64,000 nucleotides of DNA from a virus, in the IMG/VR virus record IMGVR_UViG_3300046168_000085, positions 16,389 through 80,388 of that record; one strand, given 5' to 3'. This document shows positions 10,705 to 51,949 of this stretch, in pieces. A program made the position numbers and the translations under genes. The notes beneath the pieces are model-generated. The model saw nothing but the letters and a program-made list of their open reading frames with translations, made no database searches and was not told the DNA's origin. Within the stretch, counting starts at the first letter, position 1. Every line of letters begins with the position of its first letter.

Positions 10705-11977
10705 TTATTGTTTTTTTTGAAAGTCGTATAAATTTTCTAATTTAAGAATATTGCTTAGTTCATTTAAAGCATTTCTACATTTTAATATAAACGAAGGCAC
10801 AAATATGTCATCGTAAATTAAATTACCAACATAATACTTTTTAATCCATATTTTTAAATTATTATACAAATCTTCTGTAAAAACAACTCCAGTGTGAATG
10901 TTATTAAATTCAGTTTCATTCATAGATACTCTTAATCTTAAACACGCCGGACCACCTCCGTTCCATAAACTTTGCTCTAAATTTACATAACGAACCTTTC
11001 GTATATCATTTGTTTCTTCCGATGATGCTTTGTAGGTATTTGCGTACCAATGGACTTCTACGACATCGTATGGGTGCTATCAGCATATGCCCATCTTTAT
11101 ATTCAACTAACTGACTATTAAACAAATATGTTTCAACTGCAACATCAAGTGGTATCTCTGATTCAGTTATCCGTAGAAGATTTAGTTTCCCATTAAAAGA
11201 GTCCTGAAGTTTTGTAATAGTTTCTGCTTCCTCTGCTAATGCATTTTCGTGGTAAACGTACAAATTTTTATTTCCGACTCCAATTACATCGTGGTGAAAT
11301 ACACCAGCATCTATGCTTTCCGCAGATTGTTGTGCGAATACTGCATTCTTGATTTGCATAATTTCCGCAACTTTTTTGGATGCTTCTAATGTTTGCCGTG
11401 CAGGATATTTTGACGGAGTTTCTTCTGACGAATTATTTGAACGACCATACACAAAGAAATGTAATCCTTCTTCTTCATACGAATTGCAGAATCGTGTGTG
11501 ATTGGCTGCACCTTCATCGTCCAACTCTCCATCACTATTCAAAGGAGAATGAATTAAAAATTTAGAGGTATCGTTGAAAATTTTATTTAATGTGATGTAA
11601 GTTTGAGGTGCTTCAATTCTACGATGATGTGTGAAATTCAAATTTGCAGTCAATAAATTTAACTTCCCATTCTCGGAATCTGTACTTGGTACGACAGTAG
11701 ACGAATTAGCAACCCACATACTGCTTGCAGATGAATTGATTGCCATATTATCATAATCTTCATAGTCGTTGATTAAAGGTCTTTCTTGTGGTGGTATAAT
11801 TGCTTGTTTATGCCCCAAATCAAACATCAACTTCATTTTGTCTAAACCTTGCAATGCAGCTTCCCGTGGATTGCTCGGCTTGCTTTTGTTCGTTGCCGAG
11901 TGTACATTTCCGTTAGCAAGACCAGCATAATTGTGAGTTGGTCCAACCAACCCATCAAAGTTTACTTCAAACGACAT
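10705..11977 (-). CDS. astB: N-succinylarginine dihydrolase (indel near 11010 joins the listed ORFs)
   Basis: EVNFDGLVGPTHNYAGL, SSASSMWVAN, DEGAANH, AGVFH; hand-read gap gives SLWNGGGPACLRLRV leading in frame into 10705..10923. Confidence 0.93.
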
Positions 11978-11983
11978 GGTATT

Positions 11984-12012
11984 ATTATAGATTACTTAAT
12001 CTTACCAGTCAA
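11984..12012 (-). promoter_or_regulatory. Near-consensus sigma70 promoter for astB (leaderless geometry)
   Basis: TTGACT-N17-TATAAT, then 6 nt, then ATG at 11977. Confidence 0.8.
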
Positions 12013-12300
12013 CCATTCAAACATCATTCTCCAATCTGCCATCTTAGCATATATTGGATTGCTTGACAAAAACGCAGGCATATTACCTTCAAAAAGAAGA
12101 TGACCCACAACCGCAAGTGGATAAACCACAAACGGAGTTAACAACAACCACCATAAACTAAGATTGAAAACGAACACGGATACAACAAATGCAATCGTTG
12201 CGACGTTTCCAAGCAAATGAAAAAACTTATTGATTGGTTTTGTGTGCTTACTCAGATAAAACTGATAGTATTCTTCAAAACTTTCAAACTTTTTTCCCAT
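11992..12300 (-). CDS. DUF962 / Mpo1-like membrane protein
   Basis: FESFEEYYQFYLSKHTKPINKFFHLLG...GHLLFEGNMPA...D-W-R-M family pattern. Confidence 0.85.
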   Translation of the reverse strand: MGKKFESFEEYYQFYLSKHTKPINKFFHLLGNVATIAFVVSVFVFNLSLWWLLLTPFVVYPLAVVGHLLFEGNMPAFLSSNPIYAKMADWRMMFEWLTGKIK

Positions 12301-12336
12301 ATCAATAAATATGGTATATATGAGTTTTTATAATAA

Positions 12337-12579
12337 TTACTTCTTCGCAACTTCTACATCAACCGAGTGCCAAGATTTTTCACACCCAACACTTTTACAA
12401 GCCTTTTTAATTGCTTCCGCAGTTCCTCTTGCTTTTACAGTTTCGGTGTGTCCTTTTTTGATGTCAACACCATCCACTTTTGCACTTTTGGTGAATTTTA
12501 CTTCCCAATTGCTGAATGCTTCATTTAAAAAGTTTTGAATTTCTTCACGGATGATTGATTGTAGTTCTGTTTTCTTCAT
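12337..12579 (-). CDS. Hypothetical phage protein with IIREE...LNE N-terminus
   Basis: ORF track; ATACTTATA motif upstream. Confidence 0.6.
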   Translation of the reverse strand: MKKTELQSIIREEIQNFLNEAFSNWEVKFTKSAKVDGVDIKKGHTETVKARGTAEAIKKACKSVGCEKSWHSVDVEVAKK

Positions 12580-12602
12580 AACAATATATAAGTATTATCC
12601 AC

Positions 12603-13601
12603 TTACAGAAAATATATACGAACTTTGTCGTTAATGTTTAGTTGTAATTTTTTTATGCTTTCTGCATCTACATGGATTTCTTGATTATCCCAATATTCTG
12701 CTTTTCCACGACAACAACGAAATGGTTCGTATGTTGCAATTAAAGTATCTTTTGGGTCTTCCACGAAATTCCCTGTTAATTTACCCACCTTGCTTCTTTT
12801 AATCGCACGAATGTTTTCAGTTTCACACGAATAAGTTGGTCCTGCTTCAAAAATATCAATCTCTCCGTTGAACTTGAAGTTCTGTTTCTGTAACATTCCC
12901 TTTGCAGGTTCCGTATTTTTGTGGACTTTACCAAGAACATCACGAACGTGTTTCGGAAGAAGATTAACGTAAATAGGATGACTCGGCATAAGGTCTTCTA
13001 TAAACTGCTTGTTTTTCATACTAAGATAATCTGCATTGGTATAATCTATCTTTAGAAAATGCTTCATACAATATTCGTAAAATGGTGAATGACCTCTTGT
13101 TGTTACAACACCACGCATTTCTGCGATTACTTCATTTTCAAAACGATCAAGATATTCTGCAATAAAAAGAAATCGTGAATAACTCAACAACTTTCCGTTT
13201 CCTTTTCTTGCATTTGGAAGCAGATAAAGAGTTCCAATTTCAGTAGGACCGGAATGCTTTTTATCTAAACGCAATACTTCGTTTGAAGTTTTGATTTTAA
13301 GTTCCTTATTTTCGTGGACTTCAGTATCTGTTACATATGTGTAGAAAGGTTCAAATCCACCAACTTTGCTGATGATACCGCAGATGCCTACTAACTCGTT
13401 GTTGTTTTCCATAACAAACAAATAACTTTCACCTTCAGGAGAATCCACCGATTTCTCAAATGAATATAATGTATGCTCAAGTCGTTTTTGAAGCAGAGAT
13501 TTATCGTTCTGCAAAGTTGTTATACCAGTTCCTGCTTTTTTTGCAAGTTTTTGCAGTCCACTTAAATCATTCTTATTTATCTGCCGAACGATCATAATCA
13601 A
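12603..13601 (-). CDS. astA: Arginine N-succinyltransferase
   Basis: GITTL, PEGESYLFVME, GPTEIGTLYL, GKLLSYSRFLFIA, IAEMRGV, HPIYVNLLP, IDIFEAGP. Confidence 0.95.
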   Translation of the reverse strand: MIMIVRQINKNDLSGLQKLAKKAGTGITTLQNDKSLLQKRLEHTLYSFEKSVDSPEGESYLFVMENNNELVGICGIISKVGGFEPFYTYVTDTEVHENKELKIKTSNEVLRLDKKHSGPTEIGTLYLLPNARKGNGKLLSYSRFLFIAEYLDRFENEVIAEMRGVVTTRGHSPFYEYCMKHFLKIDYTNADYLSMKNKQFIEDLMPSHPIYVNLLPKHVRDVLGKVHKNTEPAKGMLQKQNFKFNGEIDIFEAGPTYSCETENIRAIKRSKVGKLTGNFVEDPKDTLIATYEPFRCCRGKAEYWDNQEIHVDAESIKKLQLNINDKVRIYFL

Positions 13602-14955
13602 ACTGAATTAAGGTATCAAGAGTAATTTTAACAACTTCATCAATATCTTTTTTACTCATTACAGGTGTCGGAAAAAGAAAACGAACCTTCGTTGGATTTT
13701 TTCCTGCAATGAACGAAATCACTCCGTTTTTAAATAATTCGTGGACAAACTTCATTGTGACATCAGGAGACCCATCAAACACTTGAAATGCAAACATTGC
13801 ACCGATACCTCCAATGTTTGAAACAAACTCAGAGTTTTTTAATCCACTTTCAAACAAATTAAAGTATTTGTGATTCTTGCCGATTTTATACAACTCAGGA
13901 CCTGTTTTGCTTTTCTTGTCGTAAAACTTACCTTTAAGAATCTCTGTCAATACTACATCGGCTGCGAACAACGATGAAGTTGCTCCTGTGAAAGTTTGCG
14001 ACACCAACCCTGGTCTTGGTTTGACATCTTCTTTGAAAATCGTTGCACATACTTGTGTGCTTTTTCCTACACAAACCAAATCAACATATTCATCTAATTC
14101 AAACATTTGAAATGCGAATGGTTTATATGTTCTTGCAAAACTTTGTACTTCATCTACAAAGAAAAGTATATCGTGCTTTTTAAGACATTTTGCAATATCT
14201 TGAAGAATCTTTTTATCTCCAACATTGAATCCACCTTCTCCTTGAATAAGTTCTGCAACCATACACGAATGTTTACCAGGATGTCTTGCAATATGCTTTT
14301 CAAGATGCTTTACTGCTGATTCTGCATTAAACGGAATATAATCAACTTTAAGTGTATCAGGTAATCCTTCACGATAATATGGTTTATCTGTGATTTGTGA
14401 AACACCTGTTGTTCTTCCGTGGAAACAATTTGCAAATGCAAGAATACGATCAGCAGGAAACTTTTTTTGAAATGCCATCTTGATTCCGTTTTCAACTGCC
14501 ATTGCTCCACTTGTTGTTAAAAATACATGATCAAGTTTTGCTCCATGTAAATTTGCAACTTGTTTGAACTTTTCCATTACAACCAACGATTCTTCGTTTT
14601 GCTGAAGATTGCCTTGCATAACACAATCACTAAACGCAGAATTTAATGATGCTTCTACAATCTTCTCGTTTCCGTGTCCAAAATAATTTACACCAATTCC
14701 ACCTATCATGTCGTATTTAACTGATCCATCGGTAAGTTCTACTAATGCACCATATCCTTTTCCTGTTCCGACATAAGGAAATACCAATCCACCACCACGA
14801 ACATTTTTAAATCGTTCTAGTAGTTCTTCGGTGATTTCTTTAGGTGCAGTTGGTGGTGTGTGTTTTAGTTTTTTTACGGACTTAATATATTCTTTTAATA
14901 AAATTTGTTTTGCATCATTTGTTGTTTTGTCTGTAAAAAAATCGTTGTACCACAT
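13573..14955 (-). CDS. astC: Class III PLP aminotransferase, succinylornithine transaminase (AstC) role inferred from context
   Basis: SGAMAVE, FHGRT, ELIQGEGG, DEVQS, PLP lysine in VGKS; lies inside the ast cluster. Confidence 0.75.
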   Translation of the reverse strand: MWYNDFFTDKTTNDAKQILLKEYIKSVKKLKHTPPTAPKEITEELLERFKNVRGGGLVFPYVGTGKGYGALVELTDGSVKYDMIGGIGVNYFGHGNEKIVEASLNSAFSDCVMQGNLQQNEESLVVMEKFKQVANLHGAKLDHVFLTTSGAMAVENGIKMAFQKKFPADRILAFANCFHGRTTGVSQITDKPYYREGLPDTLKVDYIPFNAESAVKHLEKHIARHPGKHSCMVAELIQGEGGFNVGDKKILQDIAKCLKKHDILFFVDEVQSFARTYKPFAFQMFELDEYVDLVCVGKSTQVCATIFKEDVKPRPGLVSQTFTGATSSLFAADVVLTEILKGKFYDKKSKTGPELYKIGKNHKYFNLFESGLKNSEFVSNIGGIGAMFAFQVFDGSPDVTMKFVHELFKNGVISFIAGKNPTKVRFLFPTPVMSKKDIDEVVKITLDTLIQFDYDRSADK

Positions 14956-19203: not shown

Positions 19204-19455
19204 TTAAACAAAAAAAGAATCGTTTACTTTTTTATTTGATGTAACTCCACACTGAGATGTTTCGTAATACCACTTCTCAAGACGTTCAACTAATTCTTTT
19301 TTCGTTCCACCAATTTTAAGTTTATGCTTTTTGCACATCTCTTTTAATTTTGAAAGTGGCAAATGCTTGTATCCTCGTTTATCTACCGACTCATCGTATT
19401 GAACATGGTTCATTTTATTTTTGAGTATTTCTCCTGCTTTTGTGTCTTCCGTCAA
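19204..19455 (-). CDS. SAP-domain (helix-extension-helix) nucleic-acid-binding protein
   Basis: LPLSKLKEMCKKHKLKIGGTKKELVERL fits the SAP consensus. Confidence 0.75.
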   Translation of the reverse strand: MTEDTKAGEILKNKMNHVQYDESVDKRGYKHLPLSKLKEMCKKHKLKIGGTKKELVERLEKWYYETSQCGVTSNKKVNDSFFV

Positions 19456-19697
19456 AATATTTCCAAATTCTTTACTATCGTCTGTTCCAATGCATGGATA
19501 CTGAAGTTTCCTTGTGCTTTTATTACATATGTTGCGTGACCTTTTGGGTTCATTCCCACTTCATCCCAAGTTTGCTCAACAATGTGACCAACTCGTTTTG
19601 ATCCAGCAAACACGAAAACGACTGTATCATTTATTTTATATAAATGTCGTTTAGGATAATTTTTTCGTTTACCCCTACGTTTCATTGAAACTAACAC
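19452..19697 (-). CDS. Hypothetical protein
   Basis: ORF track. Confidence 0.5.
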   Translation of the reverse strand: MLVSMKRRGKRKNYPKRHLYKINDTVVFVFAGSKRVGHIVEQTWDEVGMNPKGHATYVIKAQGNFSIHALEQTIVKNLEIF

Positions 19698-19703
19698 AAC
19701 AAT

Positions 19704-20234
19704 TTAATTTGGTAGGATCAAACCATCAGTTGACGGTATATCAACCACTCGTTCTTCGGGATCAGTTTTTGGTTCGTCTGCACTGAGCCTTGATATACGA
19801 GTTCTCCAGTCTGCGTCTTCTCCGTTGTATTCATCGATAATATCACGAAGATGTTCAAGGTAATCACTTGGCCAGGAATTATAGTCAACTGATGTTTCTG
19901 TAATTGGGAATGGTTGCATTGGTTTATCTGCAAATAAATCTATATCATTTTCAGTGTACATAGTGTTTGCAAAATTTTCATCTAACTTTCCGAATACATC
20001 TTCGTATCTATCTTGTAAATAATTCATTTTTTTATCATACTCATAATTTACATCAATGTAAATACTTGTTGTATTGTCCGTGCAACTTTCTGTTTCAAAA
20101 TTTTCAGGTTCATATCCAGGAGCATACTCAAGGTGAAGACCAGTTTCGTCAATAGCCCACCACTCAGTCCATTCCGGGCAAGAAAGTATCTCGTTCGGTT
20201 GGTTCATTTCAAAAATTAGATCATCCATTGTCAT
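19704..20234 (-). CDS. Hypothetical acidic protein
   Basis: ORF track; SD-like AAAGG upstream. Confidence 0.6.
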   Translation of the reverse strand: MTMDDLIFEMNQPNEILSCPEWTEWWAIDETGLHLEYAPGYEPENFETESCTDNTTSIYIDVNYEYDKKMNYLQDRYEDVFGKLDENFANTMYTENDIDLFADKPMQPFPITETSVDYNSWPSDYLEHLRDIIDEYNGEDADWRTRISRLSADEPKTDPEERVVDIPSTDGLILPN

Positions 20235-20253
20235 TTTACCTTTCTATATATAT

Positions 20254-21723
20254 TCAACTTTTTTGCCAAACCCACACTGGTTCTCCGAAACTTCCTTCAC
20301 GTTCGTGATACTCGGTGTCCATTTTGCTATCGTCAGTATCTTCCGCAGTTCCGATTCCAAGGCAGTTTGGTCGTTTTGCCATTTCCATTCCAAAGCACTC
20401 TACATAACTTGCATTATTCTTTTTACTAAGATGCTCGTTCATTGGATCACAAATTTTTAACCACTGCTTCCCACCCTTCATACCTTTGCTTGTGGTATTT
20501 ACATCACTTATATTTACCATCAGTAACCCACCTTCTTTTAATGTTGTTAAAACATTATTTAATGCTTTGTGCAAAAAGTCTTTATTCCAACGATCAATAT
20601 TTTTATGACGAACCCAACTTTGTGTGTCATCATAACTATATCGTTCCACGGAAAAATAAGGTGGACTGGTAAATATTAAGTCAACCGAGTCTTTATATTC
20701 TGTCAAATCTGCATCTTCTGCCGGTGAAGGAATGAAATCAGTTTCTTTTTTCTTACCTAACCAGGATTCATAGAATTCTTTTTGTTTATCATATATAGGA
20801 TGATTTTCTGTCCGTGGGTCAATGCCAATATATTTTGTTGCTTTACTTGCATAAAAACCACACAATCTGTCACCCCAACCCATGCTAAAATCTAATACAA
20901 CTTGTGCATCTCTATACTTTTCTGGTTCGTTAGTTTTTTTATCCAATATTATTTTATCATCTTCATCAGTTTTATGATGAGTTGGTACATTATCTCTAAA
21001 TTTCTTTAGTAATGAATCAGGATAAAACTGATAAATTAATTTTGCGACATTGGGTTTGAATTGACTGCAAATGTATTTACGCAATCCTATACTTGTTCTT
21101 AAAGTAGATTTATCAACTTTTTCTGCTTTTAATGTAAACAAACTTCCCATTAAACTTGTCATGAATTCTTTGCTATTCCATGTACGCAAGGGTCCAGGTG
21201 ATACACTTCCATCTACACTCCAACGATTTTCTTGCTGAAAATAGTTACTTGCTTTATTACCTTTATTGTTTCTTTTTAAGATACGATCACTTAAAGGAAA
21301 TTTTTTTGAATATACAGACCTAGCAAACCAAGGAGTTTCTGTGAATAAAGAATCTTGTCTTTGTTTTTTTACTATGCTAGAACTTTTTTCGTGTTTTTCT
21401 TTTTGCTCATTCGTCATTTCAAACGATTCGTAAAAAGATGTATTTACACTCTTCGCCTCTTCCGTAGTTTCGTTTAAATCTTTGTATGTGAATTTTTCCA
21501 ATAAATGAAAATCTTTTTCTGCTTCGTATGGACAGATCTCCATATACGGAAGATCATATTGCATTAAAATTTCTGCAAGAGTTTCTTTTATATCTTCTTT
21601 GTCGTACTTCTCTTTTAATCGTGTCCAATTTACTGGATCAATTTCATAATAAGGTTTTACTAGTTTTCCCTCGGAATCTTTATATTCTTCTTTTATATAA
21701 TTTTTAAACTCTTCAATAATCAT
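20254..21723 (-). CDS. Amino (N4C/N6A) DNA methyltransferase
   Basis: SAM-binding VLDFSMGWGDRL, YIGIDP, catalytic FTSPPYF. Confidence 0.85.
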   Translation of the reverse strand: MIIEEFKNYIKEEYKDSEGKLVKPYYEIDPVNWTRLKEKYDKEDIKETLAEILMQYDLPYMEICPYEAEKDFHLLEKFTYKDLNETTEEAKSVNTSFYESFEMTNEQKEKHEKSSSIVKKQRQDSLFTETPWFARSVYSKKFPLSDRILKRNNKGNKASNYFQQENRWSVDGSVSPGPLRTWNSKEFMTSLMGSLFTLKAEKVDKSTLRTSIGLRKYICSQFKPNVAKLIYQFYPDSLLKKFRDNVPTHHKTDEDDKIILDKKTNEPEKYRDAQVVLDFSMGWGDRLCGFYASKATKYIGIDPRTENHPIYDKQKEFYESWLGKKKETDFIPSPAEDADLTEYKDSVDLIFTSPPYFSVERYSYDDTQSWVRHKNIDRWNKDFLHKALNNVLTTLKEGGLLMVNISDVNTTSKGMKGGKQWLKICDPMNEHLSKKNNASYVECFGMEMAKRPNCLGIGTAEDTDDSKMDTEYHEREGSFGEPVWVWQKS

Positions 21724-21767
21724 TTTACTATTATTATATAAACTAAGATATTAGTCAAACTCAAAAA

Positions 21768-23120
21768 TTAGCACTCAGTTACATTTACTGCCAATCCACC
21801 TTTACTTGTTTCTTTGTATTTGCTTTTCATATCAGCACCAGTTGCTTTCATTGTTTTTATTACGTCATCCAATGAAATTTTTGTATCGTTTTCATTAAGC
21901 ATTGCCATACGACTTGCATTAATTGCCTTTCCAACTCCAATTGCATTTCGTTCTATACATGGTATTTGTACAAGTCCTGCAACAGGATCACAAGTTAATC
22001 CTAAATTATGCTCCATAGCAATTTCGGCCGCATTTTCTACTTGCTTTAAAGTTCCTCCTACAATTTCAGTTAATGCACCGGCTGCCATACTACAAGCAAC
22101 TCCCACTTCTCCTTGGCATCCTACTTCTGCACCTGATAAACTTGCATTCATTTTGTATAACATAGCAATTACTCCAGCCGTTAATAAAAACTTGATTTCC
22201 CAATCTTCTGATTTTTCGTGGACATACTCTTTAATATACATCATTGTTGCGGGAATAATACCAGATGCTCCGTTGGTAGGAGCAGTAACAACACGATTCA
22301 TAGCTGCGTTTTCTTCGTTAACCGCAATCGCACAAATGCTTGAATAATCAAGAAATGCTTGATTATCAAGTTCATTGTTTTTAAGAAAGTTTTCGTACAT
22401 AATCGCAGCTCTTCGTTCTACATTTATTGTACCAGGAAGCATACCTTGAGTTGTTAATCCTCTGTCTACGCATTCTTGCATTATTCTCCATATTCTGCGT
22501 AATTCTGTTTTGGTTGTTTTTTCTTTTCTGAAACACTTTTCATTTTCCAACACCACATCAGATATTTTCAAATTACGATTTTCTGCGATAGTAAATAATT
22601 CTTCCGCACAAGAAAATTCATTGGTGAGTTTTCTTTTGGAAGTTTTAACTTTATTCTTTTTTGCGTTACTTTCTGTTACCACAAAACCACCACCAATGCT
22701 ATAATACATTCTCGTAGCAACTTCTTTACTTTTTGTATAAGCATAAAACTTTATTCCATTGGGATGATACGGAAGTTTTTTCTTTTTGTTGAAAATTATA
22801 TCATTCTGCGTGAATTTAATTTTACGAATGCCACCGAGTTTTATTTCTCCGTCAAGAGAATCAACTTCATTTAATTGTTGTTGTTTTACTTGATCCGGTG
22901 CATAATTCAATAAACCGAGTTGAATTGCAATCGGAGTTCCGTGACCTTCACCTGTTAATGCAAGTGAACCAAACAACTCAATTTTGATTGAATCGACTTC
23001 ACCAAATACTTTTTTGTGTTTCAAAAAAGAAACAAACTTTCTTGATGCTTGGATAGGACCTGTGGTGTGTGAACTTGAAGGACCTATTCCAATTTTGAAA
23101 AAGTCAAGAACACTATACAT
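21768..23120 (-). CDS. sdaA: L-serine ammonia-lyase, Fe-S dependent, single chain
   Basis: FKIGIGPSSSHTTGP, GSLALTGEGHGT, YSIGGGFV, VVTAPTNGA, GAEVGCQGEVG, EHNLGLTCDPVAGLVQIPCIERN, YKETSKGGLAV. Confidence 0.97.
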   Translation of the reverse strand: MYSVLDFFKIGIGPSSSHTTGPIQASRKFVSFLKHKKVFGEVDSIKIELFGSLALTGEGHGTPIAIQLGLLNYAPDQVKQQQLNEVDSLDGEIKLGGIRKIKFTQNDIIFNKKKKLPYHPNGIKFYAYTKSKEVATRMYYSIGGGFVVTESNAKKNKVKTSKRKLTNEFSCAEELFTIAENRNLKISDVVLENEKCFRKEKTTKTELRRIWRIMQECVDRGLTTQGMLPGTINVERRAAIMYENFLKNNELDNQAFLDYSSICAIAVNEENAAMNRVVTAPTNGASGIIPATMMYIKEYVHEKSEDWEIKFLLTAGVIAMLYKMNASLSGAEVGCQGEVGVACSMAAGALTEIVGGTLKQVENAAEIAMEHNLGLTCDPVAGLVQIPCIERNAIGVGKAINASRMAMLNENDTKISLDDVIKTMKATGADMKSKYKETSKGGLAVNVTEC

Positions 23121-24970
23121 TATTCAAGAAACTTGAATGTACCACCTAGAATTTTCTTTGCGAAAGAATAATTCTTTTTGTCGTTATTGTTGCTCATTCC
23201 ACTAAAGTTGTTTTTGATTTTGATTTTTGCTTCACTAAAAACCACATCCATCAACTCAAGATATTCAGCTGCTTTTTCAGGATCATCTTTGATCATGCTA
23301 TCAATACGTAATGCACACGCAGATATTACAAACAACTCAGTTCCAATTTCAGTCAAACGACCAAGAAGCATTTGTTGTTTGTCTAATGAAGGACCGTATC
23401 GTGCCATTGAGTGAAATAGTTTTCTGCTTAATTTCTTGCTTGTTCTTGAAACATAAAGAAGATACTTTTTGACTGCTCCATTTACTCCCGTGGGTCCTGA
23501 ATTGAAAGTTGGTAACCATTGTTTTGGATACCAAGTTGCATAGTGTATTCCTGCTCCGATAGCTGCCTTTAAACGAACCATCAATGGAAGACGTGAATCA
23601 AGAACTGCTCCGGCTGCTTTAAGATGTGGATCAAGTGCTTCACGTGCCAAAAGCAAACGCATAATTTCACTTGAACCTTCAAAGATCATATTGATACGAC
23701 AATCACGAAGAAATCTTTCCACAGGAATTGGATCAGAACCACGATTGCGAAGTGAGTCAGCAGTTTCGTAACCACGACCACCACGTATTTGCATCGTTTC
23801 GTCTGCTACTTTCCATGCTTCTTCTGTTCCCCACATTTTACACATTGCAGATTCCACACGAATATCTGCTTTTTTACCATCCACTAAACTTGATGTAAAA
23901 AGAACGATACTTTCAGTTGCGAAATTCTTGGCCGCAATCTTAGCAATTTTATCACCAATTGCTTGGTGTTTACCAATAGCACATCCCCACTGTTCACGTG
24001 ATGAACCCCACTCACGACAAATCTTTAAGCAACTACGCATAAGTCCCACACAAGCAGCCGGTAATGTAAGACGACCTGTATTCAATGTGCTAAGTGCAAC
24101 CTTGAGTCCTTTGCCTTCTCCTGCTACCAAATTCTCCACAGGTATCTTTACATCGGTAAATCTTACAACACCATTATACAATGCTTTAAGACCCATAAAA
24201 CGACATCGAGTAACTACTTCTACACCAGGTGTATCCATATCAAGAATAAATGCCGAAATGCTTTTACGCATTTTGCCTTTAATTTCTGTATCAGGTGTTC
24301 TTGCCATTACAATAATAACACTTGCTTTTACTCCATTTGTACACCAAAGTTTTTCTCCGTTTAAAACATAATGAGTTTTATCTTCTGATAACTCTGCGTA
24401 AACCGTCATTTGTGCAGGATCACTTCCTACAGTTTCTTCAGTCAACGCAAACGCACTAATTTCTCCTTTACCAAAACGAGGAAGATGCTTTTTCTTTTGT
24501 TCGTCTGTTCCGTAAAGTAACAATGGTTGAGGAACTCCGATACTTTGATGTGCTGATACTAACGCAGTTATATTTCCGCACACTTCACCCAACTTCATAG
24601 CCGCACGTGAATAATTTGTTTGTGATAAACCACGACCACCATATTCCGTTGGAATTTTAATTGCGAATGCACCAATCTTTGCAAGTTCTTTAAATACTTC
24701 ATCAGGAATTTCACCTTCACGATCAATTGCGTCTGCATCTACATACTTGTCTAACACATCACCCAATTCATTCAAGAAAATATCTCCTTTTGCTTTGTCT
24801 TCTGCTTTTTGTTTCGGAAATGGATAAATCAAATCATAATTTGCTTCACCTGTAAACAAACCACCACTAAAACTTTTTGTTCCTTTTTTTCCTTTATCAC
24901 GTGCAGCCTCGGCTGCTTCCAAGGCATCTGCTTTACCCTTGGACATTTTTGAAGTATCTATTTCACTCAT
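23120..24970 (-). CDS. fadE: Acyl-CoA dehydrogenase (long-chain, VLCAD-like)
   Basis: SAHQSIGVPQP, AFALTE..GSD, LNGEKLWCTNG, MQIRGGRGYE, RINMIFEGSSEI. Confidence 0.93.
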   Translation of the reverse strand: MSEIDTSKMSKGKADALEAAEAARDKGKKGTKSFSGGLFTGEANYDLIYPFPKQKAEDKAKGDIFLNELGDVLDKYVDADAIDREGEIPDEVFKELAKIGAFAIKIPTEYGGRGLSQTNYSRAAMKLGEVCGNITALVSAHQSIGVPQPLLLYGTDEQKKKHLPRFGKGEISAFALTEETVGSDPAQMTVYAELSEDKTHYVLNGEKLWCTNGVKASVIIVMARTPDTEIKGKMRKSISAFILDMDTPGVEVVTRCRFMGLKALYNGVVRFTDVKIPVENLVAGEGKGLKVALSTLNTGRLTLPAACVGLMRSCLKICREWGSSREQWGCAIGKHQAIGDKIAKIAAKNFATESIVLFTSSLVDGKKADIRVESAMCKMWGTEEAWKVADETMQIRGGRGYETADSLRNRGSDPIPVERFLRDCRINMIFEGSSEIMRLLLAREALDPHLKAAGAVLDSRLPLMVRLKAAIGAGIHYATWYPKQWLPTFNSGPTGVNGAVKKYLLYVSRTSKKLSRKLFHSMARYGPSLDKQQMLLGRLTEIGTELFVISACALRIDSMIKDDPEKAAEYLELMDVVFSEAKIKIKNNFSGMSNNNDKKNYSFAKKILGGTFKFLE

Positions 24971-24972
24971 TG

Positions 24973-27063
24973 TTATTTATCCTCGTAGAATTTTTTGTTT
25001 GTTTTTGCGTATTCAAGAAGCATATCACACGGAGTAAAGTATGCATCTTTTTTTGCTAGTTCTTGTAATTTTTGAACAACTTTTAATGCTCCTAAATTAT
25101 CAAGATACGAAATTGGTCCTCCACGAAATGGAGCCCATCCAGTTCCCATTATCATTCCAAAGTCTACATCCTTTGGACTATTTACAACTTCTTCTTGTAA
25201 ACAACGAACTGCTTCGTTAACCATAATTAAAATTAAACGATCAACAATTTCTTCATCTGCAATTTCTTGATTTATATAAGCAGATTGGATTGCTGATGTA
25301 GGTAACTTAGAACTTACACCTGTTGATTTTCCATTTGTATATTTGTAAAATCCACGACCACTTTTTTTACCTACATCTTTGTTGTCGATCATTAACTTCA
25401 AAAACTCTGATTTAGGAAAATTAGTTTCAAGACGATTCAGCAGATCATCTGCGACGTGTTGACATACATCCCCTCCTACTTCATCAATTAAACGAAACGG
25501 TCCCATTGGCATTCCAAACTTACGCAACAACTTATCGACTCGTTCAATGTCTGCACCACACGAAACCATATAAACTGCTTCAATCAAATATGGCATAAGA
25601 ATTCTATTAACAAGAAATCCAGGTGAATCTTTTACCACCACAGGAAGTTTACCTGTCTTTTTAACAAACTGAGTTGCTTTTAAAACGGTTTCCTCGGAGG
25701 TACATTCTCCACGAACCACTTCCACTAATTTCATTTTGTGAACAGGATTAAAATAATGTATTCCGACCACTCGTTCTTTATGTTGCATTTTTTCTGCGAC
25801 ATCTACAATACTAAGTGCTGATGTGTTTGTTGCAAGAATTGTATCATCACGAACAAGTGTTTCAAGTTCCGCAAATAAATCCTGCTTGATTTCAAGTTGC
25901 TCAATCGCAGCTTCTACTACTAAATCAACACTTTTCATTGGCATAGATTCGGTGATAGGTGTAACATTATCAAACTTACTTGATGCTTCTGCTTTAGTCA
26001 TCACTCGTTTGCTTACAGCTGCTGAGTACAATTTACTTATGCTTGCAATTCCTTTTGCTACAAACTCTGGTTTAATATCCTTGAGCAATACTTTGATTCC
26101 TCTTGAACTAATCCATTGTGCAATACCTGCACCCATCACTCCTGCTCCTATAACCGCAGTATTTTTTACTTTAAAGTCTTTGTCACTTTTTGTTTTCTTG
26201 CTTCGTTCTTGTAAAAAGAATATGTTCACCAAATTGTTTGCTACATCTGAAGTAAGAAGTTCTGCAAATGCTTTTTGTTCAAGTTTAAGTGATTCTTCAC
26301 GACTTACACCAAGACCTTTCACCATAACATCAATTGCTTTCAACGGAGCAGGATAAACGCCACCTGTTGTTTTAATAACATTTTTGGTTGCTTTGCTTTT
26401 TGCGATATACTTCAACGGAAAACGATTTAATAAATGAGACTTGTATTTCTTTTTTCCATTTAGTAACATTGCTTTTGCAGATGCTTCCAAATTTTCTTTG
26501 TATACCGCACGATCAATCATTCCAAGTTTAAGTGCCAACTTTGGAACAACCACTTTACCTGCTAGAATAATTCCCATTGCTCCAGGTAACCCAATCATTC
26601 TTGGTAAACGAGTTGATCCACCCCAAGCAGGAAGAATTCCAAGCATCGTTTCTGGTAAACCAATTTTAGTTGCTGAATCTAATGTTGCAACACGATGATC
26701 ACACGCAAGTGCAAGTTCATATCCACCACCCAAACACGCACCGTGAATTGCAGCCACAGTTACACACGACAAATCCTCAATACGATCAAATGTATGCTGA
26801 CCAAGTTTTACTAAATAAGAAATTCTTTCAGGTGTAGGATCATCTGCGAATGATTTCAAATCCGCACCTGCGATGAATATACTTGGTTTAGCACTTTGAA
26901 ATACCACTCCTTTGATCGTCTTACTGCTATCTTCTATAAAATCAAGATGATCATTTAATTCTGCAAACATATTTTCATCAAACACGTTAGCAATTGAATT
27001 TTCTTGATCAAATGTTATTGTAACAACATCATTTAATTGTTCTAGTTTAATTGACTTGCTCAT
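24973..27063 (-). CDS. fadB: Multifunctional enoyl-CoA hydratase / 3-hydroxyacyl-CoA dehydrogenase (FadB/FadJ)
   Basis: FIAGAD, GACLGGGYELALAC, GLPETMLGILP, GAGVMGAGIA, NTSAL, GIHYFNPV, DSPGFLVNR, FRGGP. Confidence 0.95.
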   Translation of the reverse strand: MSKSIKLEQLNDVVTITFDQENSIANVFDENMFAELNDHLDFIEDSSKTIKGVVFQSAKPSIFIAGADLKSFADDPTPERISYLVKLGQHTFDRIEDLSCVTVAAIHGACLGGGYELALACDHRVATLDSATKIGLPETMLGILPAWGGSTRLPRMIGLPGAMGIILAGKVVVPKLALKLGMIDRAVYKENLEASAKAMLLNGKKKYKSHLLNRFPLKYIAKSKATKNVIKTTGGVYPAPLKAIDVMVKGLGVSREESLKLEQKAFAELLTSDVANNLVNIFFLQERSKKTKSDKDFKVKNTAVIGAGVMGAGIAQWISSRGIKVLLKDIKPEFVAKGIASISKLYSAAVSKRVMTKAEASSKFDNVTPITESMPMKSVDLVVEAAIEQLEIKQDLFAELETLVRDDTILATNTSALSIVDVAEKMQHKERVVGIHYFNPVHKMKLVEVVRGECTSEETVLKATQFVKKTGKLPVVVKDSPGFLVNRILMPYLIEAVYMVSCGADIERVDKLLRKFGMPMGPFRLIDEVGGDVCQHVADDLLNRLETNFPKSEFLKLMIDNKDVGKKSGRGFYKYTNGKSTGVSSKLPTSAIQSAYINQEIADEEIVDRLILIMVNEAVRCLQEEVVNSPKDVDFGMIMGTGWAPFRGGPISYLDNLGALKVVQKLQELAKKDAYFTPCDMLLEYAKTNKKFYEDK

Positions 27064-27064
27064 T

Positions 27065-28312
27065 TTATTCTCTTTCCAAAATTATTGCACCACCTTGGCC
27101 ACCACCAATACAAAGTGAAATTAATGCTCGTTTACCACCACGACGTTCAAGTTCCTTCAAAGTTGTAAGTGCAATACGTGAACCACTTGAACCAACTGGA
27201 TGACCAAGAGCAATTGCTCCTCCATTGACATTCAATTTGGCAAAATCAACTTCACCCAAGTTTGTGGTTTTTTTCAGTTGCTTGCAAACCGCAAGAACTT
27301 GGGCAGCGAATGCTTCGTTGATTTCAATTAAATCAAAGTCATCAAGTTTATATCCAGTTTCTTCGCATACTTTCTGAATCGCATAAACTGGTCCTAATCC
27401 CATTCTTTCAGGGATCACATCCTGCATATGCGTATGCGGAAATTCTACCCAATGGATTCCAATTGTTTTGCTTAACTGCATTTCATCTGCAATCAACAAT
27501 GACACTGCTCCGTCTGTAATTTGCGATGCGTTGCCCGCAGTTACAGTTCCTTGTTTGCGATCAAATACAGGTTTAAGTTTTTCCAACGCACCCATACTTT
27601 GCTCACCACGAATTCCATTGTCTGCATCAACGAATGTTCCGTCTGCGAAATAAAATGGGGAAATCTCAGATGACATTTTTTCTATTGCCACAAATGCTTT
27701 CAAATGAGATTCTAATGCAAACTTATCTTGATGATATCGTGTTACTCCACTTTCTCTTGCGATCAATTCAGCAGTTTCACCCATATTCATTCCAACCGTG
27801 ATATCACTCAATCCTAATCGTAAACTGATTATAGGTGCGAAGTCTTTTGGACGGAAACTCAATATCGTATGAAGACGATCACGAAATGTTCTACACTTAC
27901 TTAACTTGGTAAATTTATCAACTGCACTTGAACGATATAAAAATGGTGCTTGTGTCATATTCTCCGTTCCCCCACTTAAATAAACACTTCCACGATCAGC
28001 ATTAATTTTATCAGATGCTTGTGTAATTGATTCAAAACCACTTGCACAATTACGATGAACCGTATAAGCAGGAACACTCTTGGGTACTCCCGATTTAAGT
28101 GAAATTACACGTGTGATGTTTGCGGTGTCTGCTGGTTGACATACACAACCCATTACACTTTCGTCAATTACATCGGGATTCAAATCCATCTTTGCAAACA
28201 ATGCTTTTGTTGCAGAAACTCCGAGGTCTGCAGCTGATGTTTTAGCAAAGGTCGTACCCATTTTACAAAAAGGAGTCCGAGTACCATCTACAAGATATAC
28301 ATTTTTTTTCAT
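27065..28312 (-). CDS. fadA: 3-ketoacyl-CoA thiolase (FadA/FadI), with a compensating indel pair at about 27410-27485
   Basis: RTPF, NCASG, TAGNASQITDGA, NEAFAAQ, GGAIALGHPVG, LCIGGGQG; alternate frame restores PLGRISAYAYAGCDPERMGLGP. Confidence 0.95.
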   Translation of the reverse strand: MKKNVYLVDGTRTPFCKMGTTFAKTSAADLGVSATKALFAKMDLNPDVIDESVMGCVCQPADTANITRVISLKSGVPKSVPAYTVHRNCASGFESITQASDKINADRGSVYLSGGTENMTQAPFLYRSSAVDKFTKLSKCRTFRDRLHTILSFRPKDFAPIISLRLGLSDITVGMNMGETAELIARESGVTRYHQDKFALESHLKAFVAIEKMSSEISPFYFADGTFVDADNGIRGEQSMGALEKLKPVFDRKQGTVTAGNASQITDGAVSLLIADEMQLSKTIGIHWVEFPHTHMQDVIPERMGLGPVYAIQKVCEETGYKLDDFDLIEINEAFAAQVLAVCKQLKKTTNLGEVDFAKLNVNGGAIALGHPVGSSGSRIALTTLKELERRGGKRALISLCIGGGQGGAIILERE

Positions 28313-28394
28313 AACCGTTACATTATATATATCACAATTTTATACATATCGTCAACTATATAACGAACAATATACATAAATGGTTTATATTAAT

Positions 28395-28606: not shown

Positions 28607-29708
28607 CTATTTCAAATTGTTTGCTGTGTGTTTGCTTCTGCCATTTCTAAATCCAAGTTTATTTAACTCTTCAAGCAACACATCTGAAATTTCAATTCCG
28701 TTTTTATGAACATCAATAGATGTATTATATTCAGTTTCTCCTGGAACTAAAACTTCTTCACCTCGTTTACTTTTGCTTGATTTTATTTCACGCATCACAT
28801 CACCAACATTTTTTTTGAAATCTTTAAGTCCGCAAAGTTTTCTGGATCAATGCAAATAAAGAAATGACCAATATCATAATTTGGATTTTTGTATTTCCTT
28901 CATACAAGTCCACTTAGTTTGCTCATATAAGCACCACTTTGAAATGCCGAACACATAAGTTCTATTGCAATACTTAAACCAGAACCTTTGTGTCCTCCAT
29001 CTGGTGTCAACGCCGCAATTCCTTGTTTTAACCAACGCAATGATCTTTCAAATGTTAGATTTTGATTTTCAGAAACTATCGCACAATTAGGAACATAGTT
29101 GTCTGGTGTTTTTCTTGCCATTACTTCCAAATCACCTCTTTGATAAACTGATGTTGCACAATCAATACTAAACGGATATTTTTCATCAGATGGAAATGCT
29201 ATTGCGTATGGATTCGTACCCATCTTTGGTTCTACTCACCATGAGGAGCAACCGCAGGTCGTGCGTTTGTAAAACTCATTCCCACTAAATTATGCTGAGT
29301 TGCATAACGACTATAATAACTTGCAATTCCGTAATGTGAGGAATTTCTAACCGCAACACAACTAATTCCATGTTCTTGAGTTTTTGCAATTGCTTGGTTC
29401 ATTGCATACTTGCCAACGATTTGTCCAAGTGCATTGTGACCATCAATAGTTACACAGGCTTTGTTGTCACGAACAATCTCGGGAGTTGCATTTACATCGA
29501 TTACACCATCTTGAATTCGTTTTATATAATAACTAAGTCTGCTTAATCCGTGTGATTTAAATCCAAGTTCGTCAGCACTTAATAATACATCAGCACATAC
29601 ACTTGAATATTTGCTTGGTACTTTGTTTTTTTCAAATACCCACTTCGCAAACGCAATTGCATCTTTAAGTTTTATTTTCACTTTGCTCTTTCGATTTTCT
29701 AATTTCAC
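28607..29708 (-). CDS. Ldh2-family (malate/L-lactate/sulfolactate/DpkA-like) NAD(P)-dependent oxidoreductase, split by indels
   Basis: ADELGFKSHGLSRL, VRNSSHYG, FTNA.P.VAP, MGTNPYAIA, GGHKGSGL, VLVPGE across 3 listed ORFs. Confidence 0.85.
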
Positions 29709-30075
29709 GTGCTTTTCTGATTTTCCTACGCATATACGGTTTCAGAAAATAATGACCAATGAATCCCTTGATAGTTGGTTTACCCACTTGCACTCTTAGT
29801 TTATTTTCATAACGAGTCATTGGACAATCTAATACTCTTGAAAAGGAAATTAATATAATAAACGAACACAAAGGCAAACATACATACCACGGAAATCCAA
29901 ACGGTGTTAAACCCTGAAATGCAAGAATGAAAAATGCACTAAAGTTACCAATTACAACCACCCAATGCAATAGAACTACAATCAGTAGTTTAAGATGCCT
30001 TAAAGGATTGGTTGGCAAAAATCTAAGAAACCGTTTTTCGTCAGAAGGTTCTGTTATGTTTTCATCGTTCTCCAT
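29665..30075 (-). CDS. Membrane protein, DUF2784-like
   Basis: Two TM segments followed by CPMTRYENKLR...GFIGHY. Confidence 0.6.
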   Translation of the reverse strand: MENDENITEPSDEKRFLRFLPTNPLRHLKLLIVVLLHWVVVIGNFSAFFILAFQGLTPFGFPWYVCLPLCSFIILISFSRVLDCPMTRYENKLRVQVGKPTIKGFIGHYFLKPYMRRKIRKAREIRKSKEQSENKT

Positions 30076-33468: not shown

Positions 33469-35954
33469 CTATTGACAACTCTCACACACTTCACCACGCA
33501 TTTTTGCTTCTAAACTGCACAATGAGGGTTCTTCAGATTCTTGTGGATTTTCTGTATCTGTATTATCTGCATTGTGTTCTTCTACATTTGATCCAGTTGA
33601 CTTTTCAATTGCACTTGCCGCCAAATTCCGCAAATAGTAAGTTGTTTTCAATCCACTTTTCCATGCGTGTGTATAAATGTCGTTCAAAAACTTCATACTA
33701 CTTTTGTCGTTGTAAAGATTCAAACTTTGACCTTGATCAATCCACTTTTGACGAGCAGCCTGCACAATCAATAAGTTTGAATTGATCTTGTTGAAATGCA
33801 GTAACATATTTTTCTTTTATCCATTGAGGAATTGAACCATTTAGTTTGCTAAGATCACCATCAACGGTTTTAACCAAGTTGGCAAGTTCTTTTGTCCAAA
33901 TTCCTTCTGCTTTCATATCATTAACAAAGTATTCGTTCATCATTGTAAACTCACCACTTAAAGTAGAATACACAAAAATAACTCCAAAGTTTGGTTCAAT
34001 GCTTTGTGAACATCCTGCGATGTAACTGATTGTTGCAGTTGGAGCAATTGCCATTGTATTGGAATTACGCATTCCTTGTTTGGCAACTTTCTTTTTGAGT
34101 TTGTCCCAATTTTTTCTAAGATTCACTTCGTCAGAATTTCCACGAAGTTTCATAACCTCTTTCCAAGTATCAATCGGAAATGTTCCTTTGCTCCAAAGAC
34201 TTCCTGTGTATGATTCGTAAGTTTCTTTTTCTACTGCCATATCAGACGAAGATTCAATTGCGAAATAAGAAATGTTTTCATAAATTTCATCACTAATACG
34301 AATTGCATCATCACTTCCGTAGTTGACACTAAACTCATAAAACATATCGTGCCAACCCATTGTTCCTAATCCAACAGGACGATGAGTCATATTACTTTTA
34401 CGTGCTTCTTCTGTTGGATAATAATTTAGATCAATAACATTGTCTAACATACGCATTGCCATTTTGGTGCTTTTTTCTAATTTATCATAATCAATAAATT
34501 TTTCACCATTTTTATCTACACCTACGTGTCGTTTCAAATTGATGCTTGCTAAATTGCAAGTTGCAGTTTCTCCGTATTCTTTAACGGTGCGTGTGCCATC
34601 ATCTGCGTGAATAGTGGGTTTGGTATGAAGAAGAATCTCTGTACACAAATTACTGCTATGCACCGTTCCTACGTGCTGATTACTATACCGAATATTACTT
34701 GGGTCTTTGAAGGTTACCCACGGATGACCAGTTTCAAAAATACTTTTCAACATTTTCTTCCAAAGGTCTTTTGCTTTGAGTTCACGAAAAACATTCAATT
34801 CTCCGTCTTGACCTTTTTTAACATATTCCCAATATTTTGTTTCAAATGCTTCACCGAAGATTTCGTGTAACTCAGGAACTTCATTTGGACTAAACAAATA
34901 CCAAGGACCATCTGCTTCTACTTGTTTCATAAACAAATCAGGAATCCAATTTGCAGTATTCATATCGTGACAACGCATTCTGTCATCACCTACGGTTTTT
35001 CGTAATGCCAAAAAGTCTTCAATGTCAGAATGCCATGTTTCAAGATATGCACATCCTGCACCTTTTCTTTTTCCACCTTGATTTACTGCAACGAGCATAT
35101 CATTGTAAAGTTTCCAAAAGTATACAGGTCCTTGATTGATTCCGTTTGTTCCTTTGATATAACTACCTCTTGCACGAAAGTTTGAGATGTCAAAACCAAG
35201 ACCACCTGCGAATTTGCTTTTTCTTGCTTCTTGCCAAATGCCATCAAAAATTCCATCAATAGAATCATCAAAGTATTTAAATAGCAACTGCTGAGTTGAC
35301 TATGAGTTGTTCCACTATTAAACAAAGTTGGTGTGGAACTAACTACATCAAAGCAACTAAGAGTTTCGTAAAACTTTAATGCGTATGCTTGTCGGTCTTC
35401 TGGTTTTTCATTTAATGCCAATCCCATTGCAATACGCATCCACATTGCTTGTGGAGTTTCCATACGACGTCCTTCTATATGCAAAAGATAACGATCATAA
35501 ATGGTTTGTATTCCAAGATACTTCCAATCTTTTTCTCTATCAATATTAAGTTTCGCACTAAGTTCACGCAAATCAAAACTTTCAAGTAACTCTTCGTTGA
35601 GAATTTCTTCACGGACTAATCTACGCATATTAGTAATAAAACTTTTACGATACTGAAGTTCAAACGCATCACTATCTACTCCTTCACCGAACACTTCTTT
35701 GTAAATTGTATTAAGAAGCATTCTCGCAGCCATATAAGCATAATTCGGTTCAAACTCAATTTTAGACCTAGCACTCATAATAAGTGATTTGTCTATTTCA
35801 GTTGTTGTAACTTTATCGTACAACTTTATTTTGGCATCAATTAATACTTCACTTGCACTTACGTTATCTAAATTTTTGATGCACGTTCGGCACATTCGTT
35901 GATTTTATCAACATTAAATTCTTCGAGTCTTCCGTTGCGTTTTTTTACTTTCAC
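33469..35954 (-). CDS. nrdA: Ribonucleotide reductase large subunit with N-terminal ATP cone, split by three indels
   Basis: [65 protein letters not shown]-terminal CESCQ. Confidence 0.95.
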
Positions 35955-41835: not shown

Positions 41836-43405
41836 CTATCAAATTTTATTACCTCGTATCGTTTCATTTCTCCGTTGTTGTAACGATACCTAACCTCTAC
41901 TTCAACGATTTCTTTTCTGTCACCATATCCTTCACTCTCTACATCGTAAGTTAGTATATTGATAGGTTTTTTCATAATCTCATGCAGATATGCCATTGTA
42001 CCCTGAAGCATATTTTATGTCAAGTGGTCGGCCATCAAAATCATGTCTAAGAAGAATTTCAGTATTTTTATACTTCATATTTTCCATATAATAAACAGGT
42101 CTACCCATATTGACGTGTCGTTCAACTAACTTTTCTTTTATTTTTTTGTGGTCTTTACTAACAACTACATATTTGTTGGTTGATTTATCAAGTGCATATT
42201 CAAAGTATTCATACTTTTCACAAAAGTCACGTGTAAAAAATTCATTAAGAAATGTTACATCATTGTACAATTCACGAACTTCAAAAAGTTTTTCACGACC
42301 AAGACCGAGATGTTTATTCCAATATCTTTTTTCGTCTCCGTTGTCGCAATTTTCATATTCTTTCCCAAACTTTCCTTTATCCCATCTATCTTCAATGTCA
42401 CGCAATAAAGTGTTTCCTAGTTTATATGGATTGTTCATATTGTATTTTCCACCAAGAACTCCTGCGTGGTGTTTTGCATAATCAAAAATTCCTTCGTCTC
42501 CTGCAAAGTTACAACTTGCCATAATAAATGAATCCCAATAACTTGCCCAACCTTCGTTGAGAACTTTCGTCATTCCCTGTGGACGATAGTAAATAGATTC
42601 ATCACGAATCATACTAAGAATATTTTGTTGCCAAGGTTCTAAACGACAATGATTAATAATCATTAGCATAATATCACGTTCAGGTCGTAAAGGGAATTTG
42701 TTTTCTGCTAACTTTGTACGTTCTTCTCTGTCTCGTCTTTGCTTTTCAATATAATGAGGAGGATTAACATATTTGTCCATGTACTCTTTAGTATCTAAAC
42801 GAGAAACGTGTTCACGTGGTTGACGGTCTTCAAAGTTGAATTTAGTTGCTTTCTTTAAATTACTTTCACGATAACAAAGTGATGGATCAATTAAATCATC
42901 AATTGCAAGAGCCCGCATTCAAAAAGTCTTTAACTTTTTTGCGGCCGAAACGATCCATATACATACGAATTTTATCACTATGATTTGCCATCACATTCAT
43001 CATATTACGATTCGTGTGTTTGAACATAATATTATTCTTGAAGAAATCACTATGTGCAGTTGCGTGTGCAACAACAGTTAGATTATCAACGATAGGATTG
43101 TTTCGTTGAAGGTACATATAAGTTGGATCGGTATTTACAACCATCTCATAAATCTTACCCATACCAGAATGATACTGATGATGCAAGTTGCTCAAATTGT
43201 TGTCCGAAATTAAATGTGGATAACGAACAGGAAATCCACCATACGCCGCAATCTCAACTATTTCGTCAGCATCAAATTCTTCAATGCACAACGGATATGG
43301 ATCAAGTCCATTATCATAACACGCCTTTAGGCATTCAGGTATAAGAGCAGCCAATTCTGGACACACTCCTTCGTTTAAACTATCTACTTCCCATGCAATT
43401 CCCAT
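41832..43405 (-). CDS. spoVR: SpoVR / YcgB family protein, split by indels
   Basis: AAYGGFPVRYPH, KIYEMVVN.DP, VVAHA.AHSDFFKNN, PERDIM, LEPWQ, YYRPQGMTKVLNEGWASYW, NPYKLG. Confidence 0.92.
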
Positions 43406-43409
43406 AATA

Positions 43410-44565: not shown

Positions 44566-44585
44566 AATGATGTATCCCTTGACTA

Positions 44586-46685: not shown

Positions 46686-46692
46686 AACCATT

Positions 46693-51948: not shown

Positions 51949-51949
51949 A

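Follow-up and report, generated by a model that had tools for sequence, protein, structure and literature searches.

A probable auxiliary beta-oxidation operon with an appended L-serine dehydratase gene in a lineage of marine myoviruses

The window analysed here is a 64,000-nucleotide stretch of viral DNA, bases 16389–80388 of the 80,388-bp IMG/VR record IMGVR_UViG_3300046168_000085, a record in which nearly all open reading frames (ORFs) lie on one strand and the GC content stays at 28–38% throughout. Four abutting genes at window positions 21768–28312 encode enzymes of the types that carry out the four reactions of the beta-oxidation cycle, together with an L-serine dehydratase. In order of transcription they are:

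27065–28312, minus strand: thiolase (acetyl-CoA C-acyltransferase), first cistron; 415 amino acids, Pfam Thiolase_N and Thiolase_C
24973–27063, minus strand: FadB/FadJ-like bifunctional enoyl-CoA hydratase / 3-hydroxyacyl-CoA dehydrogenase; 696 amino acids, Pfam ECH_1, 3HCDH_N and 3HCDH
23120–24970, minus strand: long VLCAD/ACAD9-like acyl-CoA dehydrogenase; 616 amino acids, Pfam ACAD N, M and C domains and PF21343
21768–23120, minus strand: one-chain iron-sulfur L-serine dehydratase (SdaA), fourth cistron; 450 amino acids, TIGR00720, Pfam SDH_beta and SDH_alpha

A preliminary description, made from the letters of the sequence, had placed four abutting genes of these kinds here, and the ORFs lie exactly as it said; Pfam and NCBIfam assign the same families, with Pfam E-values over the main domains of the four proteins between 1e-19 and 1e-87. 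The junctions, put there at about 2 nt or less, measure 1 nt between the thiolase and FadB genes and 2 nt between the FadB and acyl-CoA dehydrogenase genes, while the dehydrogenase gene and sdaA share one base in a TAATG overlap. Purine-rich motifs resembling a Shine-Dalgarno sequence (GGAAAGAG, GAGGA) precede the second and third cistrons.

The domains of all four enzymes, and the catalytic residues checked in them, are in place. The thiolase matches PF00108 (Thiolase_N; 201 bits, E 3e-59) and PF02803 (Thiolase_C; 140 bits, E 6e-41) and scores above the NCBIfam subfamily cut-off of TIGR01930 (394 bits against 241), and its nucleophilic Cys, its His and its second Cys all match residues of chain 4e1l in a structure–sequence alignment. 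The FadB-like protein carries ECH_1, 3HCDH_N and 3HCDH in one chain (E 1e-32 to 4e-59) and aligns over its full length with the solved FadB/FadJ chains 6tnm (E. coli FadB, E 3e-129), 1wdk and 8bnu; the hydratase glutamates E116 and E138, a GAGVMG sequence near 306–311 (GxGxxG) and the dehydrogenase pair H436 and E448 all have aligned counterparts in the E. coli protein. The acyl-CoA dehydrogenase has PF02771, PF02770 and PF00441 as well as the C-terminal ACAD9/ACADV domain PF21343 (38 bits, cut-off 27.8). Its closest solved relatives are ACAD9 and VLCAD, and the catalytic Glu of the FEGxxEI motif (FEG(T/S)xEI) is kept in the alignment with ACAD9. SdaA exceeds the equivalog cut-off of TIGR00720 (603 bits against 345; SDH_beta E 6e-49, SDH_alpha E 6e-87) and aligns with Legionella 4rqo (E 7e-131), with three internal cysteines and a C-terminal cysteine conserved, which we take to be the cluster ligands in that structure.

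The names fadA, fadB and fadE used in the preliminary description hold only in part. The three Fad-type proteins do cover all four reactions, but each falls below the equivalog cut-offs of its E. coli namesakes: the thiolase scores 320 bits against 560 for FadI and 271 against 519 for FadA, the bifunctional protein 627 against 869 for FadJ and 603 against 870 for FadB, and the dehydrogenase, which is VLCAD/ACAD9-like, 127 bits against 1300 for the E. coli-type FadE. The E. coli gene names are therefore loose, and we use descriptive names below.

The genes around the operon are those of a tailed phage. On its upstream side, in the direction of transcription, lie a tail sheath fragment, a baseplate hub, a tape-measure-like protein, a PolA-like polymerase, PrkA/DUF444/SpoVR, UvsX, an exonuclease and the ribonucleotide reductase (RNR) genes NrdA and NrdB. 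The downstream side holds a methyltransferase-like gene, genes of the arginine succinyltransferase (AST) pathway, an HNH endonuclease, a tRNA-Ser, a Dda-like helicase, a TROVE-like protein, a peptide deformylase, further methyltransferases and many ORFs without a family. Viral genes thus flank the operon on both sides, the arrangement asked of an auxiliary metabolic gene cluster, and the phage setting proposed earlier was borne out. About 30 IMG/VR records share 13–23 syntenic genes around PrkA, with replication genes 83–99% identical. Four relatives (G001, G002, G003 and G005) have a large terminase gene and a full sheath gene, with at least 20 genes syntenic with the window. The lineage is one of tailed phages with contractile tails, that is, myoviruses. 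Joining a 170-kb relative to the record through overlapping synteny would give a genome of at least about 200 kb.

The operon is a conserved part of this lineage. The order RNR, small genes, Ldh_2, thiolase, FadB, acyl-CoA dehydrogenase, SdaA, methyltransferase is kept in at least seven other marine contigs, four from IMG/VR (L003, L004, L165, L167) and three from metagenomes (L085, L087, L089), with 65–97% amino acid identity to the window; two records (G010, G015) hold the PrkA block and the operon together. Pairwise ratios of nonsynonymous to synonymous divergence (dN/dS) are 0.07–0.2 for all four genes, with dS reaching saturation, and there are no internal stops in the four genes of the window. 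All four genes are under purifying selection across the lineage. Their GC content at third codon positions (GC3) is 0.21–0.24, against 0.24 for the phage NrdB. About 110 protein clusters reach at least 67% FadB identity, and near-identical DNA occurs in runs of 20 seawater studies. Among cultured-phage records the operon has no relative, and the matches in phage collections are bacterial contigs filed as phage.

We then looked for cellular relatives in species-representative genomes with an alignment-based query, a single-protein scan having given no matches. Among the 80 best genomes, 75 belong to the Verrucomicrobiota (Opitutales, Chthoniobacterales, Limisphaerales) with FadB identities of 47–53%, and no species-representative genome exceeds 53%. 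In the cellular loci of these best 80 a thiolase gene directly precedes FadB in nearly all, and a long acyl-CoA dehydrogenase follows FadB at once in about 40%, with 56–64% identity to the phage protein. In two loci (L039, L067) the pair of genes just before the thiolase codes for a patatin-like phospholipase and for a ligase of the AMP-binding family; L039 also has a GlpD-like gene after the dehydrogenase. Compared with such lipid operons of Verrucomicrobiota metagenome-assembled genomes (MAGs; loci L039, L067, L015 and L021), which comprise patatin, ligase, thiolase, FadB and acyl-CoA dehydrogenase, the phage operon has the same thiolase–FadB–dehydrogenase order and orientation at 47–56%, 47–53% and, for the adjacent dehydrogenase, 56–64% identity. 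It differs in having no lipase or ligase, in the appended sdaA, in its low GC3 and in its place among phage replication genes. The phage sequences are monophyletic for each of the three proteins (SH-aLRT 99–100), and the phage FadB clade sits on a long stem nested within a Verrucomicrobiota clade of support 100. An origin in the Planctomycetes–Verrucomicrobia–Chlamydiae group, which the preliminary description had suggested examining by phylogeny, is thus supported by both the nearest cellular operons and the FadB tree. Two ways in which the locus might have been spurious were also named there. The same synteny in at least seven independent contigs speaks against an assembly chimera, and a best species-representative match of 53% against near-identity with a host segment; taken together, synteny, dN/dS, GC3 and the lack of a close cellular match argue that the locus is neither a chimera nor a recent capture.

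SdaA has another history. In the cellular loci examined it is never adjacent to fad genes, and five Verrucomicrobiota genomes searched with the phage SdaA as query gave no match. The next tier of cellular sequences has 54–55% identity, the sole source-named match there being a Wenzhouxiangellaceae MAG, and a protein-cluster search with SdaA did not single out a donor. The TAATG junction between the dehydrogenase gene and sdaA is kept in four of five relatives. From these comparisons sdaA appears to be a separately acquired, conserved fourth cistron whose ancestry differs from that of the captured fad block. Its coupling to the fad operon, as first described, therefore stands as far as adjacency and overlap go, but it was a separate addition and no part of the block that was captured.

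On this evidence we hold, with fair though not full confidence, that the four genes form a genuine phage-borne auxiliary metabolic operon of a large marine myovirus lineage, that the fad genes were captured as a block and SdaA added, and that the operon would serve to supply energy. Several observations weigh against this reading, and the first of them concern the record itself, which IMG/VR flags as a provirus of 51% completeness. The operon might then be host chromosome beside an integrated prophage, or a chance host segment with no working part in the phage. Four relatives (G001, G002, G003, G006) carry the same label, the source contig is longer than the record (90,970 bp against 80,388 bp), and FadB relatives at 81–83% identity sit on contigs of up to 569 kb, any of which might be cellular. 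Close relatives of FadB and SdaA are carried by contigs of 124–569 kb. In addition, three provirus-flagged records (G001, G002 and G006, corresponding to L262, L263 and L266) end directly after the ortholog of 29665–30075, about 1.4 kb before the operon position, as if the boundary caller saw host DNA beyond, and G003 ends just before NrdB. Against such a host flank, phage-type genes and ORFs without relatives run on for 38 kb past the operon, among them the HNH endonuclease, the Dda helicase, the TROVE-like protein and the methyltransferases; strand, GC, GC3 and promoter style are those of the phage core; the operon has diverged along with that core out to saturated dS; and no closer species-representative FadB turned up although the DNA is common in seawater. 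The common stop point is more simply explained if the provirus boundary caller trims a host-like metabolic island from the relatives' records. We give the reading of the locus as host flank or chance host segment very little credence.

The same trimming would account for the seeming absence of FadB from long relatives. That FadB did not turn up in G001–G009 and G011–G014 is no sign of a real lack, since the DNA of the checked records stops before the operon site, as judged by gene ends (G001, G002, G003, G006) or by the position of PrkA (G005, G007–G009, G011).

A second set of contrary observations concerns reading frames, and two features are needed here:

27411–27480, minus strand: 23-codon out-of-frame patch within the thiolase gene, from protein and DNA alignments against L085, L003, L165, L089, L004 and L167
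28395–29708, minus strand: Ldh_2-family dehydrogenase gene of malate/lactate/sulfolactate dehydrogenase-like type adjoining the operon upstream, with Pfam Ldh_2 on two pieces, split by single-base indels

Residues 278–300 of the window thiolase are out of frame although the ORF stays open, and in the sdaA of one relative (L085, 11720–13072) codon 191 reads TAA in frame, against Leu (TTA) in the window; this stop is either a nonsense mutation of that strain or an error in the reads. The operon could accordingly be decaying in this strain, with the thiolase patch, the split Ldh_2 and a split NrdA as real lesions and the pathway dead. All three genes do carry frame-breaking single-base indels that set the window apart from all relatives: NrdA (33737–35895) is divided into ORFs of 516 and 270 amino acids where relatives have a single ORF of 825–828, and Ldh_2 is intact in two relatives (L003, L004) as an ORF of 359–367 amino acids, its best NCBIfam match being a sulfolactate dehydrogenase-like family below the cut-off. 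The thiolase indels, however, fall in homopolymers, an A-run near 27480 being one nucleotide short and a C-run near 27411 one too long, and they cancel after 69 nt without a stop, while the conserved frame is kept in six relatives and in contigs from four RNA libraries. Judging from these alignments, the patch is probably a homopolymer sequencing or assembly error, and the thiolase, Ldh_2 and NrdA indels together suggest an assembly prone to such errors. Since the essential-looking NrdA is hit too, read errors are the better account than decay free of selection, and all four genes remain under purifying selection across the lineage. Decay of the operon is thus improbable.

Other points against the favoured reading bear on origin and expression. 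The trees come from quick searches, and the phage rows in them are skewed in composition. The two clues to the host differ: one SdaA fragment of 94% identity is placed in a Flavobacteriaceae MAG (TMED42), whereas the donor affinity of the fad genes is with Verrucomicrobiota. That placement may result from binning on shared low GC. As for expression, six RNA libraries hold 27–59% of the sampled words of the stretch, and in four metatranscriptome libraries contigs of 2–5 kb bridge the thiolase/FadB and FadB/dehydrogenase junctions, the RNR region being covered too. We regard these contigs as a weak hint of expression: DNA may be present in RNA libraries, strand and level cannot be read from the contigs, and no silent stretch offers a comparison. 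Contig cover is little or none over 20404–21004 and most of sdaA, but the contigs come from diverged strains, so that this is no sign of silence; nor does a contig spanning several genes prove a single transcript. In two RNA libraries, low-depth contigs (3–3.5) pass from 19331 to 27996 across 17 foreign letters and would thus skip the whole operon, which may reflect an operon-less variant or an assembly artefact.

Promoter-like sites within the four-gene unit occur at its two ends only, as read from the sequence:

28326–28355, minus strand: promoter-like site 5' of the thiolase gene, TTGACG (28355–28350), an 18-nt spacer with TG, and TATATA
21730–21758, minus strand: next promoter-like site, TTGACT-N17-AATAAT as scored, with TATAAT reading one base earlier

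The TTGACG site ahead of the thiolase gene was already noted in the preliminary description and is indeed present with its spacer and TATATA. It is a consensus match only, absent from the promoter scan's list, and its end lies 13 nt from the thiolase ATG, with no Shine-Dalgarno sequence. The second site, likewise a consensus match only, falls between the sdaA stop and the start of the methyltransferase-like gene; the unit ends here. According to the promoter scan, consensus matches in the region are fewer than in shuffled sequence. A weak terminator-like hairpin lies within fadB on the coding strand (25639–25622). The promoter-like sites (28313–28355 and 21724–21758) are so near the ATGs that the mRNAs would be nearly leaderless and without Shine-Dalgarno sequences.

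The pathway lacks its two ends in the phage DNA examined. Searches found no AMP-binding ligase, ETF (electron-transfer flavoprotein) or patatin genes in the whole 80,388-bp record, which extends the earlier remark that no acyl-CoA ligase or ETF was visible in the window. The rest of the genome, where a ligase, ETF and lipases had been proposed as things to look for, yielded none either, as far as it is represented by the 58–170 kb records of five relatives; the same searches were positive in most control genomes. Therefore, pathway entry and electron exit would come from the host, unless the genes lie in unsampled parts of the genome.

We propose the following course of events. An ancestor of the lineage would have taken up, in a single block, the thiolase–FadB–acyl-CoA dehydrogenase core of a lipid-catabolism operon of Verrucomicrobiota type, leaving the patatin lipase and acyl-CoA ligase of the donor operon behind, and the one-chain SdaA of other ancestry would have joined later as a translationally coupled fourth cistron. 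The genes would be read as a single transcript from the sigma-70-like promoter at 28355, the first gene almost leaderless. If the enzymes are active, the VLCAD-like dehydrogenase would first oxidise long-chain acyl-CoAs, with the FadB-like and thiolase proteins acting next, and flux would presumably run in the degradative direction. The infected cell would thereby gain capacity for all four reactions of each turn of beta-oxidation and for serine deamination. As the preliminary description supposed, the fuel may be lipids of the cell itself and serine set free from head groups. Acetyl-CoA, NADH, reduced flavin, pyruvate and ammonium would result, the last two from SdaA, and the benefit to the phage would lie in their use for replicating a large genome. 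Releasing and activating the fatty acids would fall to the host, as would re-oxidising the dehydrogenase by way of ETF and ETF:quinone oxidoreductase. The neighbouring Ldh_2 gene, AST-pathway genes and PrkA/YeaH/SpoVR block would fit a catabolic, starvation-type programme.

An operon that is expressed might nevertheless serve other ends than energy: clearing free fatty acids or acyl-CoAs and serine that accumulate after envelope damage or a shut-off of host synthesis by the phage, remodelling membrane lipids, or processing short hydroxyacyl-CoAs derived from storage polyester. Without lipase, ligase and ETF genes the phage can neither begin nor complete the pathway alone, SdaA relieves serine toxicity in E. 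coli, and the neighbouring genes are a mixed catabolic set (Ldh_2, AST pathway), all of which would suit such a role. Yet the VLCAD/ACAD9 type to which the dehydrogenase belongs is long-chain and membrane-associated, and the donor operon is a pathway from phospholipid to acetyl-CoA (patatin and ligase, with the GlpD-like gene in L039); both fit ordinary long-chain beta-oxidation. We consider a non-energy role unlikely, with rather more to be said for it than for decay or a host flank, and continue with energy supply as the favoured function.

Among known systems, the trifunctional complexes FadBA and FadIJ of E. coli, together with FadE, carry out the same four reactions, the FadB-like protein aligns with theirs end to end and the thiolase triad is kept; in the phage, however, the thiolase gene comes first and the dehydrogenase is VLCAD/ACAD9-like rather than of the 814-aa FadE type. 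Among viruses, the giant algal virus PkV RF01 (Nucleocytoviricota) has an acyl-CoA synthetase, a CoA-transferase, an acyl-CoA dehydrogenase and a dienoyl-CoA reductase; hydratase and thiolase are both missing. It resembles the present lineage as a virus with beta-oxidation enzymes, which were read as an energy supply for a large virion, while the phage has the complementary gene set, in one operon and in a bacterial host. According to a 2022 review, neither hydratase nor thiolase is known from giant viruses. In Pacific Ocean viromes, fadB and fadL reads were reported and energy from fatty-acid oxidation was proposed (Hurwitz et al. 2013, PMC4053976); that signal is at read level, without genome context or operon, and thiolase, acyl-CoA dehydrogenase and SdaA were not described. 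Mar_Mega_1, a marine megaphage, has a patatin-like phospholipase, and the searched text of its paper does not mention acyl-CoA and has 'oxidation' only in its reference list; Mar_Mega_1 and other jumbo phages with auxiliary gene sets are alike in being large marine phages with central-carbon genes. A search of the literature, including papers on marine jumbo and huge phages, found no phage beta-oxidation operon described. The earlier statement that a whole spiral is unusual in a bacteriophage agrees with this: we found a full beta-oxidation core described for no cultured phage and no giant virus.

Some further features of the region lie outside the operon. The PrkA/DUF444 (YeaH)/SpoVR trio occupies 41980–46691 in the replication region, about 13.7 kb from the operon. 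PrkA modules with 48–77% PrkA identity occur in dozens of otherwise unrelated IMG/VR phages of 27–57% GC, among them one record of 572 kb that has terminal repeats and the uncultured phage LR756511.1 of 595 kb, so that the module behaves as a mobile phage module. One 222-kb record rated complete (G004) was considered as a relative without the operon and rejected, because only 11 of 111 proteins are shared (the PrkA module, RNR genes and a few weak matches). As this record has the PrkA module yet shares little else, PrkA is no marker of the lineage. When 47172–56583 was compared with L168–L202, the replication genes were 83–99% identical but the polymerase-like and large structural genes upstream of PrkA only 24–66%; the window phage would therefore be a mosaic with a different tail or structural module. 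The stretch 11006–14955 encodes AstB (succinylarginine dihydrolase, Pfam E 1e-113) together with a class-III aminotransferase, a tRNA-Ser(TGA) lies at 3023–3112, and the peptide deformylase gene is at 6732–7280 of L002.

Auxiliary metabolic genes of phages are usually single steps, whereas here selection maintains, in a widespread marine lineage, a catabolic cycle that is whole but for entry and electron exit. With the operon, the 2013 virome hint of hosts pushed toward fatty-acid oxidation would acquire a genome context and a cassette that can be tested. Provirus-boundary callers may cut host-like islands off real phage genomes, and surveys of viral metabolic genes may undercount them as a result. 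In its widest form the proposal is tentative, a little less likely than not: cosmopolitan jumbo marine myoviruses may carry the first complete viral beta-oxidation core, in one transcription unit with serine deamination and within a catabolic island of about 20 kb (Ldh_2, the arginine succinyltransferase pathway and, nearby, PrkA/YeaH/SpoVR), by which a nutrient-starved host would be made to use up lipid and amino acids of its own and so meet the cost of a phage genome no smaller than 200 kb.

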